DNA from: a phage | Reading direction: 5' to 3' (one strand) | Length of the DNA: 64,000 bases | Sequence record: PQ327946.1 | Shown: piece by piece, positions 27,233 to 36,754 of the stretch | Layout of the letters: each line of letters opens with the position of its first letter | Numbering within the stretch: position 1 is the first letter of the stretch | Notes under the pieces: generated by a model | What the model was told of the DNA's origin: nothing | Seen by the model: only the letters and a program-made list of their open reading frames with translations | Database searches by the model: none | Position numbers and translations under genes: made by a program

Positions 27233-27261
27233 TAGTATCACACATTCATGTGTTTGTAAAC
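27233..27261 (-). promoter_or_regulatory. early promoter upstream of the alt.-1-like ORF
   Basis: GTTTAC-N18-TACTAT; palindrome ACACATGAATGTGT in spacer. Confidence 0.45.
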
Positions 27262-29348
27262 TATCCTTGGACAAATTTAAACGGAACTGATTCTAAATCC
27301 ATTAAAGATGCTAACAATTTCAATCCTTTAGGAGCACTAGTTTTTTCTACAAACGTGGAGAACGATACCAGCTCATCTGATTCGATTTCACCCGTCATAG
27401 CAACCACCTCGCCTGTTTCCATGAGAACATCACCGTCGTAAATGACAGCTTCGTCCAACTGGTCCGAGGACATGACTTCAGCTTGAATAAATTTAAGGTT
27501 GGATTCTAAACCTGCACCAGTGTCAGATGACGCATCTGTAATTTTATTTATCTGCAAGAGAATACCTCTAGGCAAAATAATTTCTTGCTCGTTAGGGTGA
27601 TTACTCAACTGTCCAGGATAAATCACGTTAACTTTATGGGCGCCATCAATAGCCCATCCAACGTTAACACGGATTTGGTCTGGTGCATGCATAGCTGTTC
27701 TTACTTGACTAGGAGAAATAGTAACACCTTCGTCATTATTATCAATGTTAAGCTCTTTGCGAACTTCTTCAGGAGCAAGTCCAAGGGCAACGTTCTCTTT
27801 AAACCCACCGAAAATAATAGGAGCTAGTGAAGTGGAAACATAGTTTCTGAAGTAGAATACCTTATTTTTAACCATTGCTTCGTAAATAGGCATTCTGATA
27901 GACTGGGCTCTATATAACGTTAGTCCTTCAGGTAAACGGTCTCCATTTAAAAACGCTGAATCAAGACCATCAATAGCGCGTTTAACTTCATCTTCATCTG
28001 CAACATCGTAAAAATCTGGTTTATAACGACCTAACAGCATATTATTGATATCGGTATACGCAGAAGAGGCATATTCACGAATAGCTCGTTTTTCAGCAAC
28101 AGAGTATTGATTAGGGACCCGATTCATTGTTATATTAAAGGTGCCTCTAGCCGATTCTCGTGCATAAGTATACATCACATTAGACAAGAACGCTGATTTA
28201 CGTTGTTTCCAAGTTCTTTCAGATACTTCAGCTAAAACGTCGTCGGGCAGTTGGAAATTATCACGTCTAAAATCTTCAAACCATTCGTCTTTAATAGAGT
28301 CTGCAATTTCATTTGCAGCTTCAACAAAAGCAGCTAATGCTTTAACAGATGTTGTTTTTTCAGTTTTAATTTTCTTAGCAAACTTTTCTAAAGTCGGCTT
28401 AATAACACTACCATAAGAAACTTCATCAGCAAATTTAAAGGATTCATCAATACGATTATAAATCTTATTTTCGATATCAGCAACTAAAGTGCCTTTTGCT
28501 GTGGACGATGCTTGGGCTAGTACGATTTCATATGCTTCAGGAAGTAATTCGGCTGTAGCTGGGCCACTAACTTCTTTAGCAGAATTTTCATATTTCTGGA
28601 ATAACTCACCTTCTTGGCGGTCAGCTTCTAAAGATTGACTTGCTGCAATAGCACGACGAGAAATTTTAGTACGAGCAATAACAGGCTTATCTTTACGTTT
28701 TTCTTCTACAGCAGCAATAGAACCAGCGATAGCCGTTTCTTTGGTGACCTTTTCACCAGTCTTTTTACTCACATAAACTTCGCCAACTTCAGAATCTACT
28801 TTCGTGTACAACTCTGTGTTAATGTTAGGGATGCCTTTAATATCTTCAATGTTGGCATTTTTACGAACCATCATCACATAGGTGTGTTTACCTGTGAATT
28901 GATACATTGCTGACAATACTTTAAAACGACCGCCAGTTTTAGTAGAAACTAAACGAGCAAGAAGAGTTTGAAGCTGTTGTCCACGTCCTTTCAATTTCTT
29001 GGTAGGGAATCGGAACAGAACTGCATCCATACGAAGAGCTTTAACCTGTTCATATACTGTATTGAAAATGGTGTTGATTGCATCAATAGGAGCAGGACCA
29101 AGGCCGTTTTTCAATTCAGCGAGATTACCCTTTTCAGACAGACTCATAATAACAACATGAGCGTATTTGTCGCCAAGTTTAACTTGTTTTACAGCATCGC
29201 CTTCAGAAAGGTAAGAGAATAAGCGAACTACGATGTTTGTATCAACATCACCAATTTTCCAGACTTGTGGAACTTTAGCTTTAGGGTTCAAATTGACGAC
29301 AGGAAGACTGCCTTCAGATTCAAACACTTCATTTAATTGTTCAGACAT
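27261..29348 (-). CDS. alt: Alt ADP-ribosyltransferase
   Basis: 695 aa; T4 Alt-like; position between 54 and 30. Confidence 0.85.
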   Translation of the reverse strand: MSEQLNEVFESEGSLPVVNLNPKAKVPQVWKIGDVDTNIVVRLFSYLSEGDAVKQVKLGDKYAHVVIMSLSEKGNLAELKNGLGPAPIDAINTIFNTVYEQVKALRMDAVLFRFPTKKLKGRGQQLQTLLARLVSTKTGGRFKVLSAMYQFTGKHTYVMMVRKNANIEDIKGIPNINTELYTKVDSEVGEVYVSKKTGEKVTKETAIAGSIAAVEEKRKDKPVIARTKISRRAIAASQSLEADRQEGELFQKYENSAKEVSGPATAELLPEAYEIVLAQASSTAKGTLVADIENKIYNRIDESFKFADEVSYGSVIKPTLEKFAKKIKTEKTTSVKALAAFVEAANEIADSIKDEWFEDFRRDNFQLPDDVLAEVSERTWKQRKSAFLSNVMYTYARESARGTFNITMNRVPNQYSVAEKRAIREYASSAYTDINNMLLGRYKPDFYDVADEDEVKRAIDGLDSAFLNGDRLPEGLTLYRAQSIRMPIYEAMVKNKVFYFRNYVSTSLAPIIFGGFKENVALGLAPEEVRKELNIDNNDEGVTISPSQVRTAMHAPDQIRVNVGWAIDGAHKVNVIYPGQLSNHPNEQEIILPRGILLQINKITDASSDTGAGLESNLKFIQAEVMSSDQLDEAVIYDGDVLMETGEVVAMTGEIESDELVSFSTFVEKTSAPKGLKLLASLMDLESVPFKFVQG

Positions 29349-29382
29349 AGTGTTTTCCTTTTAGTAATAATTTATATTTATG

Positions 29383-29406
29383 CCAAAAAAGAGCCCGAAG
29401 GCTCTT
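29383..29406 (-). terminator. terminator separating the gene 30 operon from alt
   Basis: Minus-strand hairpin AAGAGCC-UUCG-GGCUCUU followed by U6. Confidence 0.6.
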
Positions 29407-29593
29407 AATCCACAATCGGGAGCAAAGTACGATAAACTTCAAAATTAGGGCCTTTTTCGTACTTATCAAAATTGTCCATAAAAATACGATAGGAATCGTT
29501 ATTAGGAAAATCTAATACAATTTGGGAACAAGAGGTGGAAACATTGCGACCATCTTTATTAGCGACAACTACTGTTTCTAAATAAGCTTTCAT
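29405..29593 (-). CDS. hypothetical small protein (about 62 aa, start trimmed)
   Basis: ORF downstream of gene 30 with ATGA-type overlap; terminator hairpin at its 3' end. Confidence 0.35.
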   Translation of the reverse strand: MKAYLETVVVANKDGRNVSTSCSQIVLDFPNNDSYRIFMDNFDKYEKGPNFEVYRTLLPIVD

Positions 29594-31086
29594 TATAAAC
29601 CTGTCTGGGACCACGGTCCAAATACGTCTTCAAATGAATCCGCTTCTGTTTTATCAAAACGGAACCCTTTAATAATTGGAAGGAAAATACCTACAGTACC
29701 TTCACGGCCTTTAGAATGAACCCAACCATTACATTCACAATCAGCGATACGTCCAATTAATTTACCTTCACGGGCTTCTGTCATTAATCGTTCACGGTCT
29801 AAATCATGACGCTCGTCTAAAGGAATAAGAACCTTTACACCGTCAACTGTTTTATGAGTTGTATCTTTAAACCCTGAACCACAATCGGTTGTAATACGAC
29901 GACAACGTGATACGAGTTCGACACCACCTAATTTGTTAGGGTCTTTAGAGTGTTCATAGTATCCTACAACTTCTAAAGCGATATCAATAACTTCTTTAAA
30001 TTTAATTAGGTTCTTAGAGCGTTTGTTTTCCCAATATGAATCACGGTTTTTAAGGATAATACCTTCAAGGCCTTGGTCAACATATTTTTTATAAACCACT
30101 TTAGCTTCGTCAAGATTACGAACTAACTGGTTTTCGATAGGTTCAATTCGCTTAAAGCCTTCAGCCATATTTTCAAGAGCAGCAAAACGAACATCGTATT
30201 TCTGACCTTTAATTTTGCCATCAGAATAGACTTCATCTAAAGGAACATAGTCCCAGGCTTGAAGAACCATACCTTCCGCTTCTTTAGGAGAAATAGTCCC
30301 TTGAAGAGATTTATTTGCTAAACCATTTGAAGTGCTACGGTCTGCAACTTGTACTTCTTCGGATTCTTCATTATCACCAAATAAGAACGACAGATCATTT
30401 CCTGAGCTCACAGCCTTTTTAATATCGAATGAATGATAAACTAATTCACCGTCGATTAAAACCCCATTAGGGTGTCTTTCACGAGCTTCTTTAGTCATTT
30501 CCATTAGTTCATCCGCTAATAGAGTAAGACCATGGTATTCGTTACCGGCACGAGAAAAGAATTGAACACCACCATCGCGGACTTCAGCGAAACAACGAGC
30601 ACCATCTGCTTTTAATTGGGCAAATGCGGGCCATTTAATATTTTTAGTAATCAATTTCTCATCATATGCAGATGCTAACATCTGTGGTTGCAATTGAATA
30701 AGTCCAGGCCACACCTTATTCGCGATAGACACTGAAGCACCTACTTCAAGGTCTCGCATCATTACACGGCGTAGTACTTCAACATCATCAGGTTTACCGT
30801 CGGCGATATAACCCATGAGCTCTTTAATTGCTGCATTACCAGTGAGTTTACGAGTGGCCAATGTGAACTCAATAAAATCCAACATGTCATCTAATTCAAG
30901 AAGGCCATACGCTTGAGACCTTTCACCTGGCCCCGGCCATTTCTTAATATAATACTGAATGCCATGTGCATACGTTAAACGATATACACGTTCAAGTAAT
31001 TTGTTGTCCTTATTTTTCTTAAGGATTTCCTGTTTTGTTTTAGTAGAACCGATCGCAGCTATTTGGTTTAAAATATCTAAAATCAT
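29593..31086 (-). CDS. 30: ATP-dependent DNA ligase gp30
   Basis: 497 aa; ligase adenylation motif KADGAR; T4 gp30-like. Confidence 0.9.
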   Translation of the reverse strand: MILDILNQIAAIGSTKTKQEILKKNKDNKLLERVYRLTYAHGIQYYIKKWPGPGERSQAYGLLELDDMLDFIEFTLATRKLTGNAAIKELMGYIADGKPDDVEVLRRVMMRDLEVGASVSIANKVWPGLIQLQPQMLASAYDEKLITKNIKWPAFAQLKADGARCFAEVRDGGVQFFSRAGNEYHGLTLLADELMEMTKEARERHPNGVLIDGELVYHSFDIKKAVSSGNDLSFLFGDNEESEEVQVADRSTSNGLANKSLQGTISPKEAEGMVLQAWDYVPLDEVYSDGKIKGQKYDVRFAALENMAEGFKRIEPIENQLVRNLDEAKVVYKKYVDQGLEGIILKNRDSYWENKRSKNLIKFKEVIDIALEVVGYYEHSKDPNKLGGVELVSRCRRITTDCGSGFKDTTHKTVDGVKVLIPLDERHDLDRERLMTEAREGKLIGRIADCECNGWVHSKGREGTVGIFLPIIKGFRFDKTEADSFEDVFGPWSQTGL

Positions 31087-31352
31087 TTGATATCCTCGAT
31101 TTTGGTTACGGTTCTATTATAAGCCACTTCATCTAGAAGCGATTTCAGCGTTTTCTGATAAGTGGTAATCCATTTACCGAGTCCTTCAACATAATATTCT
31201 GAAATGTAGATGAACCCTTGTTCAACACACTCTTTAAATATTTCTGCGTCTTTTACTGAACGAAACATTGGCCAGTCTCTAAAGAACATGTTAACGTGAC
31301 CGTAGTCACGCGTTGTGTTTTTGCCATCTGTAATATCATGAACTACAAACAT
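31083..31352 (-). CDS. hypothetical protein (30.1-like, 89 aa)
   Basis: ORF, translationally coupled to gene 30. Confidence 0.4.
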   Translation of the reverse strand: MFVVHDITDGKNTTRDYGHVNMFFRDWPMFRSVKDAEIFKECVEQGFIYISEYYVEGLGKWITTYQKTLKSLLDEVAYNRTVTKIEDIK

Positions 31353-31361
31353 AATTAACCC

Positions 31362-32177
31362 TTAACAATTTATAGACCAAGTCCATTTGGACGAATCTAA
31401 AGGAAAGTTTTGAATCGTCCACCATGGCTGCATATCGGTTGGTCCTTGGTTTCGCCAGGTATACGGATTCGACGGAGTGCCAATTTGATTAGGCCATGCA
31501 CCTGGACTTGTTGCACCAGATTCTTTAAGCAAATCTGCCAATCGTTTTAAAAGGTCTTCACTATCTGAATCTGAATTATGCTCTGGCGGAACCAATCGAG
31601 ATTCAATATCATCCCACGTGTGTACACGTTGTGCAGTACGAGGAATGGCATCACGTTCACCACGAGCCAACCAATAAATCGGTACATTAAGAATTTCTGC
31701 TGCATGGTCACAGTGATGAGCTAAATCGTCAACGTAACAAATCACGTTATATTTTGTTTTAGCTAGTTCAAATAATTGTTCCTTTGAAGAATCATGACCA
31801 CACATCATTACTTCAGAGAAAGCGCCTGGGAACAAAGCATTCAAATTAAATTGTCTATTCAATCGAGCATCAATTGAATCACCTAGCGCCGTCACGGCTA
31901 CAAAATTATAGTCTTCTTTTAGTTTATTGATAACTCGAAGAGCATCAGAATAAGGCGCTAAGTAACGAATAAAATCAGAGCTATTATATTTTTCTATTAA
32001 TTGTTTACCAAGGTTATCGTCGGTATTGAACAGTTTACCAGGAGAAATAAATTTTTCGTCCTGAATCATTTTTAAAATATGTTCTAATGGAAGATTATAT
32101 TTTTGGGCAAAATAAGGAAGTCCAGATTGCCAGCTTAAACATACACCATCAATATCAGTCAAAATAGTAGGCTTCAT
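31362..32177 (-). CDS. HAD-superfamily hydrolase-like protein (30.2-like)
   Basis: 271 aa; N-terminal ILTDIDGV matches the HAD DxDG(T/V) motif. Confidence 0.5.
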   Translation of the reverse strand: MKPTILTDIDGVCLSWQSGLPYFAQKYNLPLEHILKMIQDEKFISPGKLFNTDDNLGKQLIEKYNSSDFIRYLAPYSDALRVINKLKEDYNFVAVTALGDSIDARLNRQFNLNALFPGAFSEVMMCGHDSSKEQLFELAKTKYNVICYVDDLAHHCDHAAEILNVPIYWLARGERDAIPRTAQRVHTWDDIESRLVPPEHNSDSDSEDLLKRLADLLKESGATSPGAWPNQIGTPSNPYTWRNQGPTDMQPWWTIQNFPLDSSKWTWSINC

Positions 32178-32641
32178 AAAGAGTCTCTTAATAGGTTTAA
32201 CACATCAATAAATTCGGCTTCGGTTAATATTGTATCATCTTTTGTTAGGTGGCTGGCCATGCTGTGCTTCAAAATTTTTCCTTTAGAGGCTTGTAAGGCA
32301 TCGCGAAACCCCTTGTTTTGGATCGCGGCTTCAAAATATGCATTTGTGTATAATTCTTTCCACGCTTCAGAGTATCTTGAAAATGGAACTCCTAACCAGA
32401 AGAGAGTCCCACGGTCCTGAGCTCTTGCATAAGACCTTCCAGCTTGCTGTGCGGCCAGACCTGACAGCCCAAATATACGTCTTTGTTGTTCAACATTTTT
32501 CACCTTACATCCTTGGAGAAATCCTTCAAGACCTCCGAATTGAATACCATCCATAACAAAAGGCCATTGAGCAAAGTTACTTAATGCACATGACGGCCAC
32601 TTGAAATTACTTCTTATTTCTAATTCAGACATCTTTAACAC
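32174..32641 (-). CDS. NADAR (YbiA/DUF1768)-like protein (30.3-like)
   Basis: 155 aa; N-terminal signature LSNFAQWPFVMDGIQF..LEGFLQGCK resembles the NADAR core FSNF..P...DG..F..E..FQ..K. Confidence 0.45.
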   Translation of the reverse strand: MLKMSELEIRSNFKWPSCALSNFAQWPFVMDGIQFGGLEGFLQGCKVKNVEQQRRIFGLSGLAAQQAGRSYARAQDRGTLFWLGVPFSRYSEAWKELYTNAYFEAAIQNKGFRDALQASKGKILKHSMASHLTKDDTILTEAEFIDVLNLLRDSL

Positions 32642-32837
32642 TTATAATTTCAACATCAGCCCAATGACCGTAACTAGGCAGACGGTCTTCAATGGATAAA
32701 CCACCGTCATTTTTAAGCATTTTAATTGTCTTGATATACGGTTCATCCTGTGGATGAATAGGCGAGCAGTCAGTCACACGATAAGTAACTTCGACCATTT
32801 CCGTGCCTAACAATTTCTGGATTAATTTATTCAACAT
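32625..32837 (-). CDS. hypothetical protein (70 aa)
   Basis: ORF in compact minus-strand operon. Confidence 0.3.
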   Translation of the reverse strand: MLNKLIQKLLGTEMVEVTYRVTDCSPIHPQDEPYIKTIKMLKNDGGLSIEDRLPSYGHWADVEIISVKDV

Positions 32838-33036
32838 GTTTCAACCCTTTAATAGGAGATAACTCTTTACCCATACGTATGTCAGAAGTCCAATCAACCC
32901 ATTGAACAGCATACGCTTCATTGATAATTCCAGCGGCGGTTTTAAATTCAGGGAGAACTTTAAAAATCACCCCAGGGATTCCAACACCTTTTAATTGGAC
33001 TGTTTGTGCTATTAAAAATTTCATATTTTTTTCCAC
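32827..33036 (-). CDS. hypothetical protein (69 aa)
   Basis: ORF in compact minus-strand operon. Confidence 0.3.
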   Translation of the reverse strand: MEKNMKFLIAQTVQLKGVGIPGVIFKVLPEFKTAAGIINEAYAVQWVDWTSDIRMGKELSPIKGLKHVE

Positions 33037-33080
33037 TTACTAAAGAAATCATTATACTCTAATCCGTCCTTGGATGTACA

Positions 33081-33695
33081 CTACTTAATGAAATTAATTT
33101 CTACCGGATGAACAACAGGTTGAGCAGTGATATATTGAGTAATTGCTTTCATGACTAGAGCTTCAGAACCAGGATTTTTCTCAACGAATTCACGTGCTCG
33201 GTTATGAGCTTCGAGTTCACTCAATAAACCGGAACGTTGGCATCCACGGTCTTGAGTACCCTGTTCAGATAAAAGGACTACTACATATTTTTCATCGTCG
33301 TAGGGCTTAGCCAGTTGAGCAAATGTTCCTTTACTTCCAAAAGGAGAGTTATGTCGCCACATCACGCCGTGAGGAGTTTCAACCTTCGTATATTCGTGCG
33401 GGCCATTTTTCTTAGTTTCTTGATGTGGAACTTCATAGACCTTAGGGTTAGGACATTCAATAAAATGCTCATCTAAATCGGTCGAGAATATTAAAGTAAA
33501 ACAATTACTGAATTTACCAACACCCGCCTGATAAATTTTACCTTCAGAAGTTCTAATTTCACAAACCGAGCCGGCATCAGTAACTTCTAAAACTTCAAAA
33601 GGCTCAATAAGGTCATATGAGAACATGTTTTTAAGGCGTGGAGTAATATCCCCATTTTTAAAATTCATTTTATAAAAAGTATTAACTTTAAACAT
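33081..33695 (-). CDS. hypothetical protein (about 204 aa, start trimmed to MFKVNTFYK)
   Basis: Track ORF 33081..33725 overlaps an upstream UUCG hairpin; the internal Met has a GAGGAAA Shine-Dalgarno. Confidence 0.4.
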   Translation of the reverse strand: MFKVNTFYKMNFKNGDITPRLKNMFSYDLIEPFEVLEVTDAGSVCEIRTSEGKIYQAGVGKFSNCFTLIFSTDLDEHFIECPNPKVYEVPHQETKKNGPHEYTKVETPHGVMWRHNSPFGSKGTFAQLAKPYDDEKYVVVLLSEQGTQDRGCQRSGLLSELEAHNRAREFVEKNPGSEALVMKAITQYITAQPVVHPVEINFIK

Positions 33696-33730
33696 AATTT
33701 CCTCAGTGGGAGCCGAAGCTCCCAATTAAT

Positions 33731-34096
33731 TTAGATATCAAATTCGTTAAGAACTACATCAAAGATTGCTTCGAGATGTTCAGGTTTAGCTCGGTTACTC
33801 AGGATATGACGAATCCAAGTTTTAACCAGAAGTTTACGATTAACACCATTCCAGCAAGGATGAGTACCTAAATCACGCTGACGGAAATCATCATCTAATG
33901 CAATTTTAAAATTTGAACCTTCCATCGTGATTGAAACCGTGATACCATTTTCAAATCGCATATAAACGTAATTAGGAGTCATGCACTGTTCGATTTCACA
34001 AACTGTACCATTTTCGTGTTTCCATAAGCAAATAACTTCAGAAGAACCAGCAATACCGTTAGAAACATATTTACGTTCGAAGTTGGTGTAGTTCAT
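33731..34096 (-). CDS. hypothetical protein (121 aa)
   Basis: ORF preceded by early-promoter-like motif. Confidence 0.4.
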   Translation of the reverse strand: MNYTNFERKYVSNGIAGSSEVICLWKHENGTVCEIEQCMTPNYVYMRFENGITVSITMEGSNFKIALDDDFRQRDLGTHPCWNGVNRKLLVKTWIRHILSNRAKPEHLEAIFDVVLNEFDI

Positions 34097-34137
34097 TTTA
34101 TTCTCCGGATGTTTAAGTTGTTTGTTGGTACAGGTCT

Positions 34138-34166
34138 ATAATAACATAACCTGTACCAAAGTAAAC
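34138..34166 (-). promoter_or_regulatory. early promoter
   Basis: GTTTAC-N17-TATTAT; flanked by inverted repeat GGTACAGGT/ACCTGTACC. Confidence 0.5.
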
Positions 34167-34170
34167 TGTT

Positions 34171-34539
34171 TTATGCAACTTTAATCCAATTGTCTAAATT
34201 TAAAACACCTTTGGCTTTCATTTTTTCGATCAGGTTATCTGCTGTAATGCGTCCATTTTGATACCATGTAACATCTTCAGAGTAACCAGTTTCTTCGTCA
34301 ACATATGTTTCTGAACGAATTTTACCGGTAATAATAGTTTTTAATTCGTATGTGTCACCTGTGAAAAAGTTTGCTAACACAATTTTCCAAGAGAAATCAT
34401 CTGAAGGACCTTCAGGGGTCATACAACCTACGAACTCAAATTGCTCTTTGTATAACATCCACTGGAATTCTTTAATTTCGATAGCTTTATAACCGTCTTG
34501 GTCTTTACATTTGATGTATGAGTTCAGATTGATTTTCAT
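34171..34539 (-). CDS. hypothetical protein (122 aa)
   Basis: ORF preceded by early-promoter-like motif. Confidence 0.4.
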   Translation of the reverse strand: MKINLNSYIKCKDQDGYKAIEIKEFQWMLYKEQFEFVGCMTPEGPSDDFSWKIVLANFFTGDTYELKTIITGKIRSETYVDEETGYSEDVTWYQNGRITADNLIEKMKAKGVLNLDNWIKVA

Positions 34540-34580
34540 TTTATTCTCCGATTGTTTTATTGATTAGGCGGTACAAGTCT

Positions 34581-34609
34581 ATAGTAACACATCCTACAGG
34601 AGAGTAAAC
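34581..34609 (-). promoter_or_regulatory. early promoter
   Basis: GTTTAC-N17/18-TACTAT upstream of ORF 34171..34539. Confidence 0.5.
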
Positions 34610-34639
34610 ATCTTTTTTAAACTTTTTCTGCCCTAAACG

Positions 34640-34664
34640 CACAAAAGGGAGACCGAAGTCTCCC
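34640..34664 (-). terminator. terminator after the 59-aa basic ORF
   Basis: GGGAGAC-UUCG-GUCUCCC followed by UUUUG on the minus strand. Confidence 0.65.
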
Positions 34665-34669
34665 TAAAA

Positions 34670-34849
34670 TTATGCAACAACCTTTCCAAAACGAGAAGCA
34701 TCATCTCGAAGAACTGCACGTGCTCTGCGCATGATCTTCTCAACTGTTTGATTAATACGAGAGTTCGACCCACGCTTGTATCCAGCGCGTTTAGAGGTAC
34801 CATCAACTTTCTTTTCAACTGCTTTCTTTGCTTTAGCTTGTTTTGCCAT
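34670..34849 (-). CDS. small lysine-rich basic protein (59 aa), not in ORF track
   Basis: Translation MAKQAKAKKAVEKKVDGTSKRAGYKRGSNSRINQTVEKIMRRARAVLRDDASRFGKVVA; AAAGAG upstream of ATG; stop followed at once by a GGGAGAC-UUCG-GUCUCCC terminator. Confidence 0.45.
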   Translation of the reverse strand: MAKQAKAKKAVEKKVDGTSKRAGYKRGSNSRINQTVEKIMRRARAVLRDDASRFGKVVA

Positions 34850-35111
34850 TATAAATTCTCTTTAAATGAAAATGCAGGACTTATTGACATTGCCTGCTCA
34901 AGCCCTCAAGGGGAACATAGGTTTTGGATATTTAACGACAGGATAACCATAAACCCGTCATCATACCTACCACGACTTACACAGATAACACTTTTCTGAC
35001 GCATGATAGTAACATTCAAGAGGTACACCGTAAAATTGTCGGGGCGGTACTTCTAAAACATACCGATTCGCAAATCGATAATCAGACAATTCGACGGCTC
35101 CTCGATTTAAC

Positions 35112-35360
35112 TTACTTCAGGGTAATAACAAAATGACGAACTGCTTTGCGTGCTGCAGAAGCCAGAGGCTTAGCATATTTCAATTCATCTTTAGCTTCCA
35201 GTTCAGAAGCCAGAGTAGCCTGAGCAGGATTCAGATGTTTGAAATATCGCAGGATTTCCAGTGCTTCGGCTTCAACATCAATTGACGCACCGTAGTTTTC
35301 GTGACCGTTATTCCATGCGTTTCGTTGCAGTTCAAGAGCGTGTTGTAATTGTTTAATCAT
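35112..35360 (-). CDS. rIII: rIII lysis inhibition accessory protein
   Basis: 82 aa; T4 rIII-like; late promoter upstream. Confidence 0.8.
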   Translation of the reverse strand: MIKQLQHALELQRNAWNNGHENYGASIDVEAEALEILRYFKHLNPAQATLASELEAKDELKYAKPLASAARKAVRHFVITLK

Positions 35361-35476
35361 TTTAAATTCTCAATTCGAGATAATATTTAGTAGCCACGTT
35401 CGTCTGAATTTCACCTTCTTTCGACAGGTCTCTCAGTTGTAGGCTACCGCTTAGAAGAGTGTTCTCTTCATATAGT

Positions 35477-35484
35477 TATTTATA
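35477..35484 (-). promoter_or_regulatory. late promoter TATAAATA for rIII
   Basis: TATAAATA on minus strand just downstream of gene 31 stop. Confidence 0.5.
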
Positions 35485-35817
35485 TCACTTATAAAGACAC
35501 GGAATAGCTTTATAGTGGCATGTTACGAATTTCTGTTTAATTTCTTTAGGTTGTTTAAGTCCCAAAGCCACAAATGGATGTGGAACATTTCGAATTTGTC
35601 CAACTGGTAGTGGAGTCAAATCACCGACTTCAACAAAACCTTCAGGAACATCAGGACCTACAGAATGAACTACACATAGTTCAGGAACTTCACCTTGAAC
35701 ACGTTTACCAATCACAAGTCCTGATTCTGTAACTTCTTCATCACCTGCTTGAGCGGGTTCAGAAACCAGAATGACATATTCACCAACAGCACGAATTGGG
35801 AGTTGTACTTCAGACAT
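35485..35817 (-). CDS. 31: gp31 co-chaperonin (GroES-like)
   Basis: 110 aa; T4 gp31-like; MotA-box middle promoter upstream. Confidence 0.85.
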
Positions 35818-35845
35818 CTTATTTCCTTGTTGTTTGACGATAGAT

Positions 35846-35874
35846 TAATAATACCATACTATTCGTAAAGCATA
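35846..35874 (-). promoter_or_regulatory. MotA-dependent middle promoter for gene 31
   Basis: Minus strand ATGCTTTA, 12 nt, TATTAT. Confidence 0.55.
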
Positions 35875-36183
35875 TTACATAAGAAGCAAACGCTCCGCCG
35901 GAGTACCATCAACCGAAATTACTTTATCAAGGCGGAAAGAACGCCACTGGCCTAACTTGGTATCGAATGCTCGAACTGATTCACGAGGTTCATAACGAAC
36001 TTCTGTTGCTGGATTGTTATTTTCATATTTGACTTCAAGTTCATCGCGCGAAGCAAACATAGTGCGTACCTCGCCGTTAGCCTTTTCAAATACAACACAA
36101 TGAACGCCTACAGACAGAATAGTTTTAATACGTTCACGAAGAACCATAGTTTCTTGTTCAGTTAAAATCATATTATTCACCAC
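35875..36183 (-). CDS. hypothetical protein (31.1-like, 102 aa)
   Basis: ORF between cd and 31. Confidence 0.4.
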   Translation of the reverse strand: MVNNMILTEQETMVLRERIKTILSVGVHCVVFEKANGEVRTMFASRDELEVKYENNNPATEVRYEPRESVRAFDTKLGQWRSFRLDKVISVDGTPAERLLLM

Positions 36184-36754
36184 AAAAGTTTCGGATTTGT
36201 TCCCAATTCAGAGAACGAAGATTATTACGAGAGTACTGAATTACTTCAATACCAGCTTGTTTAAGAATGTCTGCCCAATTTTCAGGAGATCGGTCATATA
36301 ATTCTGCATATACAACCTTTTTAATACCTGACTGTGTAATAGCTTTAGTGCAATCAGGACATGGAGAAAGTGTCGTATACAACGTAGCACCTTCAATAGA
36401 ATTACCTTTGCGAGCAGCAAACAAAATGGCATTCAATTCTGCATGGATTTCATTATTAGCAGACCATGCACTATGAGCGGCCCGATGTTCTTTAGCCAAA
36501 ACAAAATTATCTGCCCGTCCAAATGATGTAGTGCCTTCTTTATGCCCAGCAACGATGACCGGGCTTGGTTTATTCTTCAACCAACCGTTTTCGGATGCAT
36601 GTTCACAACAGTTAACACCACCTGCAGGTGAACCATTATATCCGGTAGAAATAATGCGTCCATCTTTTTCAATGACGGCACCAACTTTCCATGAACAACA
36701 TTTTGATTCTTGAGAAATCAGATATGCAATCTGAAGGTATGTGCTAGCTTTCAT
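36173..36754 (-). CDS. cd: dCMP deaminase
   Basis: 193 aa; zinc-binding deaminase motifs HAELNAI and SPCPDC. Confidence 0.9.
   Translation of the reverse strand: MKASTYLQIAYLISQESKCCSWKVGAVIEKDGRIISTGYNGSPAGGVNCCEHASENGWLKNKPSPVIVAGHKEGTTSFGRADNFVLAKEHRAAHSAWSANNEIHAELNAILFAARKGNSIEGATLYTTLSPCPDCTKAITQSGIKKVVYAELYDRSPENWADILKQAGIEVIQYSRNNLRSLNWEQIRNFCGE

Follow-up and report, generated by a model that had tools for sequence, protein, structure and literature searches.

Gene 30.3 lies on the minus strand of the 64,000-nt stretch of phage DNA analyzed here (the window), within the 30.x cluster. From alt upstream, the minus-strand order is alt, alt.1, the ligase gene (gene 30), 30.1 (DUF3045), 30.2, 30.3 and 30.4, continuing past 30.4 with a 30.5-like ORF, a 214-aa ORF, 30.7, 30.8, 30.9, rIII and gene 31. 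The alt gene, encoding an ADP-ribosyltransferase, occupies positions 27261-29348 (minus strand; PF03496, E = 4e-28; phrog_802), five genes away from 30.3, in agreement with the initial annotation of this DNA, which had noted Alt nearby. Between alt and the ligase gene, alt.1 (29405-29614, minus strand) has a match, beginning at residue 8, to the Pfam family PF24647 'Phage blade protein' (E = 5e-29). The ORF is listed from a GTG that overlaps the 3' end of the ligase gene. The 214-aa ORF (33081-33725, minus strand; phrog_17531, no Pfam match), situated between the 30.5-like ORF and 30.7, occupies the slot of 30.6 in T4 and RB69. By tblastn it is present in phage 348Ecol098PP and absent from the T4 and RB69 loci, which indicates a variable slot in the 30.x cluster.

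No tRNA genes or Rfam families were found across the whole window. A promoter and terminator scan of positions 29000-36500 gave 25 sites compared with 22.6 in shuffled sequence, and thus no excess. A sigma-70-like site, TGTACA-18-TATAAT at 33080-33051 (minus strand), is located upstream of the 30.5-like ORF as a consensus match only.

The 30.3 region shares 99.3% identity with Escherichia phage ST0 and 97% with several further T-even phages, among them 348Ecol098PP, which is classified as a Mosigvirus and annotates 30.3 as "ybiA-like protein". Compared with RB69, identity is 98.8% for the window ligase and 97.8% for gp30.2, whereas against T4 the two proteins reach only 63% and 75%, respectively, so that the backbone is RB69-like (Mosigvirus). 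Along positions 29593-34539, identity to T4 is highest for gp30.3 (97%) and gp30.7 (93%), and it falls to 58% for gp30.1, 46% for gp30.4 and 37% for gp30.8. At the DNA level, 30.3 and 30.7 are 88-89% identical to T4 with a dS of ~0.6, which indicates strong purifying selection rather than recent exchange.

Reading frame and start codon of gene 30.3

The six-frame ORF list contains a minus-strand ORF at 32174-32641, 155 aa counted from a GTG codon, that includes LSNFAQWPFVMDGIQFGGLEGFLQGCK. The initial annotation had described this ORF, and it is real and matches the list exactly, but its start is to be moved by 9 nt. Sequence comparison indicates that the conserved start of gp30.3 is the ATG at 32632 and not the GTG at 32641, giving a coding sequence of 152 aa plus stop at 32174-32632. 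First, the T4 annotation gives gene 30.3 a length of 459 nt (152 aa). Second, in the alignment T4 keeps the ATG, nine bases downstream, whereas the GTG is absent. Third, the published numbering of the catalytic residues E36 and K43 works from the ATG alone. The in-frame codons GTG-TTA-AAG ahead of the ATG (32633-32641, minus strand) fall within the 3' end of gene 30.4 and are probably not translated as part of gp30.3.

With this start, gene 30.3 begins inside the end of gene 30.4, and the two have 8 nt in common, including the 30.4 stop (ATGTCTGA, 32625-32632, minus strand); the T4 annotation has an identical overlap, a configuration suggestive of translational coupling. At the other end, the stop codon of 30.3 and the start codon of 30.2 share an ATGA (32174-32177, minus strand), as read from the ORF list and the sequence. 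The out-of-frame internal gene 30.3' of T4 (75 aa) is represented here by separate 34-aa and 24-aa ORFs (32269-32496, minus strand), and this split argues against 30.3' as a conserved gene.

Orthology to T4 gene 30.3

The window protein matches the Pfam family PF08010 (Phage_30_3) with E = 1.9e-69 and 232 bits, far above the gathering cut-off of 36 and over the full model (positions 1-138 of 138). It also matches phrog_652 (E = 7e-52), and tblastn retrieved relatives in 1511 phage records. Compared with T4 gp30.3, 147 of 152 residues are identical (97%). The five substitutions are K11R, E89P, I120V, M125I and H128G, and all of them fall at positions that vary among 66 aligned gp30.3 relatives (35-88% identity, T4 row left out). 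The two genes differ at 49 nucleotides, with 37 synonymous and 5 nonsynonymous codon changes, corresponding to a dN/dS of 0.043. Together, the PF08010 and phrog_652 matches, the 1511 records and the low dN/dS show that the gene is not a chance ORF. The order 30.4-30.3-30.2-30.1-30 (ligase)-alt.1-alt is common to the window and T4. Based on the sequence of gp30.3 and on a gene order as in T4 and RB69, we identify the window gene as the orthologue of T4 gene 30.3 (adfN), encoding a predicted phage-type NADAR ADP-ribosylglycohydrolase.

Several searches with the window protein by itself gave no match: NCBIfam, phmmer against PDB sequences (0 matches at E <= 10), the PADLOC defense models, and the Pfam NADAR family PF08719 (E <= 1). 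The profile search suggested by the initial annotation would thus look negative if made with the single sequence and not with the family or with structures. Accordingly, gp30.3 is assigned to PF08010, within the NADAR superfamily as a member of its phage branch, and not to PF08719.

NADAR fold and catalytic residues

The initial annotation had proposed a NADAR/YbiA-like protein from an N-terminal motif, and this proposal holds at the level of the family. A profile of the gp30.3 family finds E. coli YbiA (2b3w) at E = 0.0059, and the profile alignment pairs the motif with FSNFAAWP...E..FQAQK of YbiA. Whereas PF08719 does not detect the window protein, it is matched individually by 25 of 67 family members, with a best E-value of 1.5e-7. 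An AlphaFold2 model of gp30.3, built on the 66-relative alignment, has a mean pLDDT of 93.3 and a pTM of 0.88, and it shows the alpha+beta fold of NADAR proteins, a helical core flanked by small beta-hairpins. In a Foldseek search against the PDB, the top three matches of the model were YbiA (2b3w, E = 5e-5), Phytophthora PnNADAR-ADPr (8bau) and the Geobacter lovleyi NADAR (8bat), and above noise only NADAR structures were matched. As the single-sequence searches of PF08719, the PDB and PADLOC were empty, the NADAR link of gp30.3 rests on family profiles and predicted structure.

In the structure of PnNADAR-ADPr, E43 and E125 hold the distal ribose, and the counterpart of K50 in the E. coli C7 NADAR, K95, is essential, which points to a role in phosphate coordination (PMC11543638). 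The E36 and K43 residues of gp30.3 are spaced seven residues apart, as are E43 and K50 of PnNADAR, and they align to the corresponding Glu and Lys of YbiA. The position of PnNADAR E125 is occupied by Glu in YbiA-type proteins, by Asp in DarT1-linked or DarG1-type NADARs, and by His in phage NADARs (PMC11543638, PMC11125620). In the model of the window protein, the final beta-strand (residues 120-123) contains the phage-branch marker, H123. All three residues are invariant among the 66 relatives. Read from the sequence (minus strand), the codons are GAA at 32525-32527 for Glu36, which is predicted to coordinate ribose (corresponding to PnNADAR E43), AAG at 32504-32506 for Lys43, predicted to coordinate phosphate (corresponding to PnNADAR K50 and E. 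coli C7 NADAR K95), and CAC at 32264-32266 for His123.

The C-terminal helix and the RB69 frameshift

RB69 encodes a truncated AdfN, which renders it sensitive to DarTG1 (PMC11825919). A three-way DNA alignment of the window, T4 and RB69 revealed that a single extra T shifts the frame of the last 15 residues of RB69 adfN. This extra T is found in RB69 only, and the window frame reaches the T4-type stop. Over residues 1-137, the window and RB69 proteins are 97% identical. The C-terminal helix, residues 138-151 in the AlphaFold2 model (32177-32222, minus strand), is lost in RB69 and, given the absence of an RB69-type T insertion, intact in the window. From the intact frame, the 97% identity to the T4 protein and the conserved catalytic residues, we infer that the window allele is functional and that the phage is resistant to DarTG1.

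With the last 53 residues as tblastn query, coverage was below 80% in approximately 3 of 1102 phage records, so that a truncation of the RB69 type looks rare. An apparent second truncated class in Tequatrovirus records (residues 1-45 of the 53-residue query) was rejected as a local-alignment artefact, because two of these records end at the normal position over the start of 30.2 and the record of a T4 clone annotates the gene with all 459 nt. In the complete T-even genomes of SV76, UGJNEcP4, vB_Eco_NR1 and RPN226, gp30.3 is annotated as fragments of 86-109 aa only; these may be natural adfN pseudogenes or sequencing or annotation errors.

Gene 30.2

The HAD-like hydrolase that the initial annotation had noted next to gene 30.3 is gp30.2 (31362-32177, minus strand), which adjoins 30.3 downstream. 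According to its AlphaFold2 model (pLDDT 84 for residues 1-220, beyond which the chain is disordered) and Foldseek, gp30.2 has the fold of a HAD hydrolase resembling 5'(3')-deoxyribonucleotidases. The best PDB matches, 2jao, 3bwv and 2i7d, are all enzymes of this type (E ~1e-7), and residues D8, D10 and G11 of the DxDGV motif are invariant. Pfam support is weak (HAD_2, E = 0.013), and no Pfam family covers gp30.2. The C-terminal tail of ~45 residues is Trp/Pro-rich and predicted to be disordered, and its length varies between phages.

A 30.2 homologue adjoins 30.3 in T4, RB69 and an Acinetobacter Lazarusvirus, and in Klebsiella phage KP15 two small ORFs separate the homologue from 30.3. By tblastn, no 30.2 homologue was found within 5-6 kb of 30.3 in Aeromonas, Vibrio, Krischvirus, Rhizobium, Brevundimonas or Ralstonia phages.

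Distribution of gp30.3-family genes and the link to alt

Proteins of the gp30.3 family are also present in Ackermannviridae, Pootjesviridae and Dolichocephalovirinae phages. In Aeromonas phage SW69-9, Brevundimonas phage Kabachok and Ralstonia phage RSP15, they are encoded inside tRNA clusters or beside RNA ligase or helicase genes. At the loci examined in Aeromonas, Vibrio, Rhizobium, Brevundimonas and Ralstonia phages carrying the gene, the link to alt is lost. The gene has moved widely and is tied neither to alt nor to DNA ligase, and the closeness of 30.3 to alt in the window is conserved T4-type gene order.

Discussion

The gp30.3 proteins were recognized in 2012 as a phage branch of the NADAR superfamily (de Souza and Aravind, as cited in PMC11125620 and PMC11543638). 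T4 gp30.3 hydrolyzes guanine-linked, but not thymine-linked, ADP-ribose on DNA (PMC11125620, Toxins 2024). It also accepts G-ADPr RNA, less efficiently than a DarT1-linked NADAR does (PMC11833690), and it is absent from the NADARs listed as reversing cytidine-ADPr (PMC12945103). Using RB69 chimeras, Johannesman et al. [quoted passage not shown] In the same work, the E36A and K43A variants and a C-terminal truncation of AdfN-T4 were impaired, and purified AdfN stripped ADP-ribose from DarT1-modified DNA (PMC11825919). In an independent transposon screen of T4, insertions in adfN were lost on a DarTG1 host (bioRxiv 10.1101/2025.11.20.689424). Reversal of DarT-type guanine ADP-ribosylation as an antidefense function, one of the roles suggested initially for the window gene, is thus established for the T4 protein (PMC11125620, PMC11825919, bioRxiv 10.1101/2025.11.20.689424).

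Drawing on the orthology, fold, catalytic-residue conservation, intact allele and purifying selection found for this phage, we conclude with a probability of roughly 0.93 that the window gene encodes AdfN, a minimal NADAR-fold N-glycosidase that counters DarTG1. The hydrolase activity and the anti-DarTG1 phenotype would carry over from the 97%-identical T4 protein. According to the proposed mechanism, AdfN would be made from the 30.x transcription unit as a single NADAR domain. Upon infection of a DarTG1-carrying host, DarT1 would modify guanine bases of the phage DNA with ADP-ribose at N2 and block replication. AdfN would then bind the ADP-ribose, with Lys43 contacting the pyrophosphate and Glu36 and His123 flanking the distal ribose, and would hydrolyze the bond between ribose and guanine, releasing ADP-ribose and leaving the DNA unmodified again. 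The repaired phage DNA could then replicate in DarTG1-carrying E. coli. As the gene is the orthologue of a characterized T4 protein, it is already known: the mechanism, the structure class and the phenotype of AdfN have been published, and nothing here is new to biology.

The initial annotation had further proposed to test whether expression rescues from DarT toxicity. For T4 gp30.3 the published outcome of such a test is negative, as uninfected E. coli was not rescued from DarT1, and phages T5 and Bas25 were barely helped (PMC11125620), although the phenotype at the level of the phage is clear. A free-standing hydrolase is therefore not the whole picture, and a T-even-specific factor or context appears to be needed; AdfN-T4 is fully active only during T-even infection, for which the authors proposed a requirement for a T-even factor. 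An obvious candidate for such a partner, encoded in the same operon, is gp30.2, because the start of its gene overlaps the adfN stop and the two genes are linked in Tevenvirinae, Acinetobacter Lazarusvirus and Slopekvirus. We dropped an obligatory syntenic partnership with gp30.2 as a general rule, given that the genes are unlinked in six distant lineages. In addition, the text of the transposon screen names adfN alone as lost on DarTG1 (bioRxiv 10.1101/2025.11.20.689424). In light of both observations, we regard gp30.2 as a very unlikely partner. The full rescue of RB69, which has an intact 30.2 of its own, by adfN alone fits either view.

Among the other functions to be weighed, gp30.3 could act mainly on soluble low-molecular-weight ADP-ribose derivatives that serve as immune signals or arise as by-products in RNA repair, or on riboflavin intermediates as a YbiA-like N-glycosidase, and not on ADP-ribosylated DNA. 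The authors of a comparative-genomics survey argued for soluble ADPr derivatives as the targets of most phage NADARs (PMC9503650). Distant phages carry the gene among tRNA genes or by genes for RNA ligase or helicase, and the structures closest in fold include YbiA. The prediction of the survey predates the direct demonstration of G-ADPr DNA hydrolysis and of the adfN-dependent DarTG1 phenotype, and the last-strand Glu of YbiA-type proteins is replaced by His in gp30.3. In view of the existing DarTG1 genetics, a role of this kind is at most secondary, and we consider it highly improbable as the main one.

Modulation of the phage's own ADP-ribosylation, also raised by the initial annotation, found no support. 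AdfN might strip host proteins or RNA of ADP-ribose and in this way tune the Alt, ModA and ModB program of the phage, which would explain its position near alt. In T4-like phages, NADARs are expressed early, along with the ADP-ribosyltransferases of the phage (PMC9503650), and the alt-ligase-30.2-30.3 arrangement recurs in an Acinetobacter phage. But the proximity to alt reflects T4-type gene order and is lost in the five groups of distant phages named above, the NADARs tested act on base-linked ADPr (G, and some C) and not on ADPr at RNA phosphate ends (PMC12945103, PMC11833690), and adfN is dispensable on hosts lacking DarTG1 (PMC11825919, bioRxiv 10.1101/2025.11.20.689424); such a role is hardly credible. 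It is just as implausible that the window allele is inactive and gives no protection, as might be feared from its RB69-like backbone, RB69 being the type species of the same genus with a frameshifted, nonfunctional adfN, and from the short gp30.3 fragments encoded by several phage genomes, since the window lacks the T insertion, is open to the T4-type stop and retains all invariant residues, and low coverage of the C-terminal third is confined to ~3 of 1102 records.

For annotation, the reading of the gene as adfN implies that it should be labeled as such (anti-DarT factor, NADAR ADP-ribosylglycohydrolase) and not as "hypothetical protein", the designation still used by nearly all phage records among the matches listed. 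It also predicts that E. coli carrying DarTG1 should allow plating of this RB69-like phage, in contrast to RB69 itself, which would be useful in choosing phages for therapy or typing.

Comparison with known systems

The closest known system is AdfN of T4, which the window protein resembles in sequence (97% identity), length, the overlaps with 30.4 and 30.2, the position in the cluster, the residues E36, K43 and H123, and the C-terminal helix. It differs from T4 AdfN by five conservative or peripheral substitutions, by the RB69-like backbone, and in that 30.3' is not preserved. With RB69 gp30.3, the window gene shares the genus-level backbone and the locus, but RB69 is without the terminal helix, which is intact here.

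By comparison to DarG1 and the DarT1-linked NADARs (E. coli C7, G. lovleyi 8bat), the phage protein is a bare core without the N-terminal DNA-binding extension, and it has His in place of the DarG1-type Asp in the last strand. Unlike DarG1, it is an orphan: it has no darT neighbor and no match to the PADLOC models, its neighbors being the phage genes 30.4 and 30.2. Moreover, phage gp30.3, as published for T4, is no substitute for DarG1 in uninfected cells. Thus, gp30.3 works like DarG1 but belongs to no toxin-antitoxin pair. YbiA (2b3w) and the Phytophthora NADAR (8bau) are more distant, with 18-21% identity to the window protein. The His typical of the phage branch is Glu in YbiA-type proteins, and the physiological role of YbiA is the detoxification of riboflavin intermediates (PMC11125620, PMC11543638).

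Other phage-encoded orphans likewise resemble antitoxins and reverse DNA ADP-ribosylation by DarT, namely AdfN-Bas32 (T5-like), AdfN-Bas60 (Vequintavirinae) and AdfM, the macrodomain protein encoded by T4 tk.4. AdfN-Bas32 and AdfN-Bas60 come from other NADAR branches and are active without T-even infection, whereas AdfM differs in fold and counters DarTG2, which modifies thymine.
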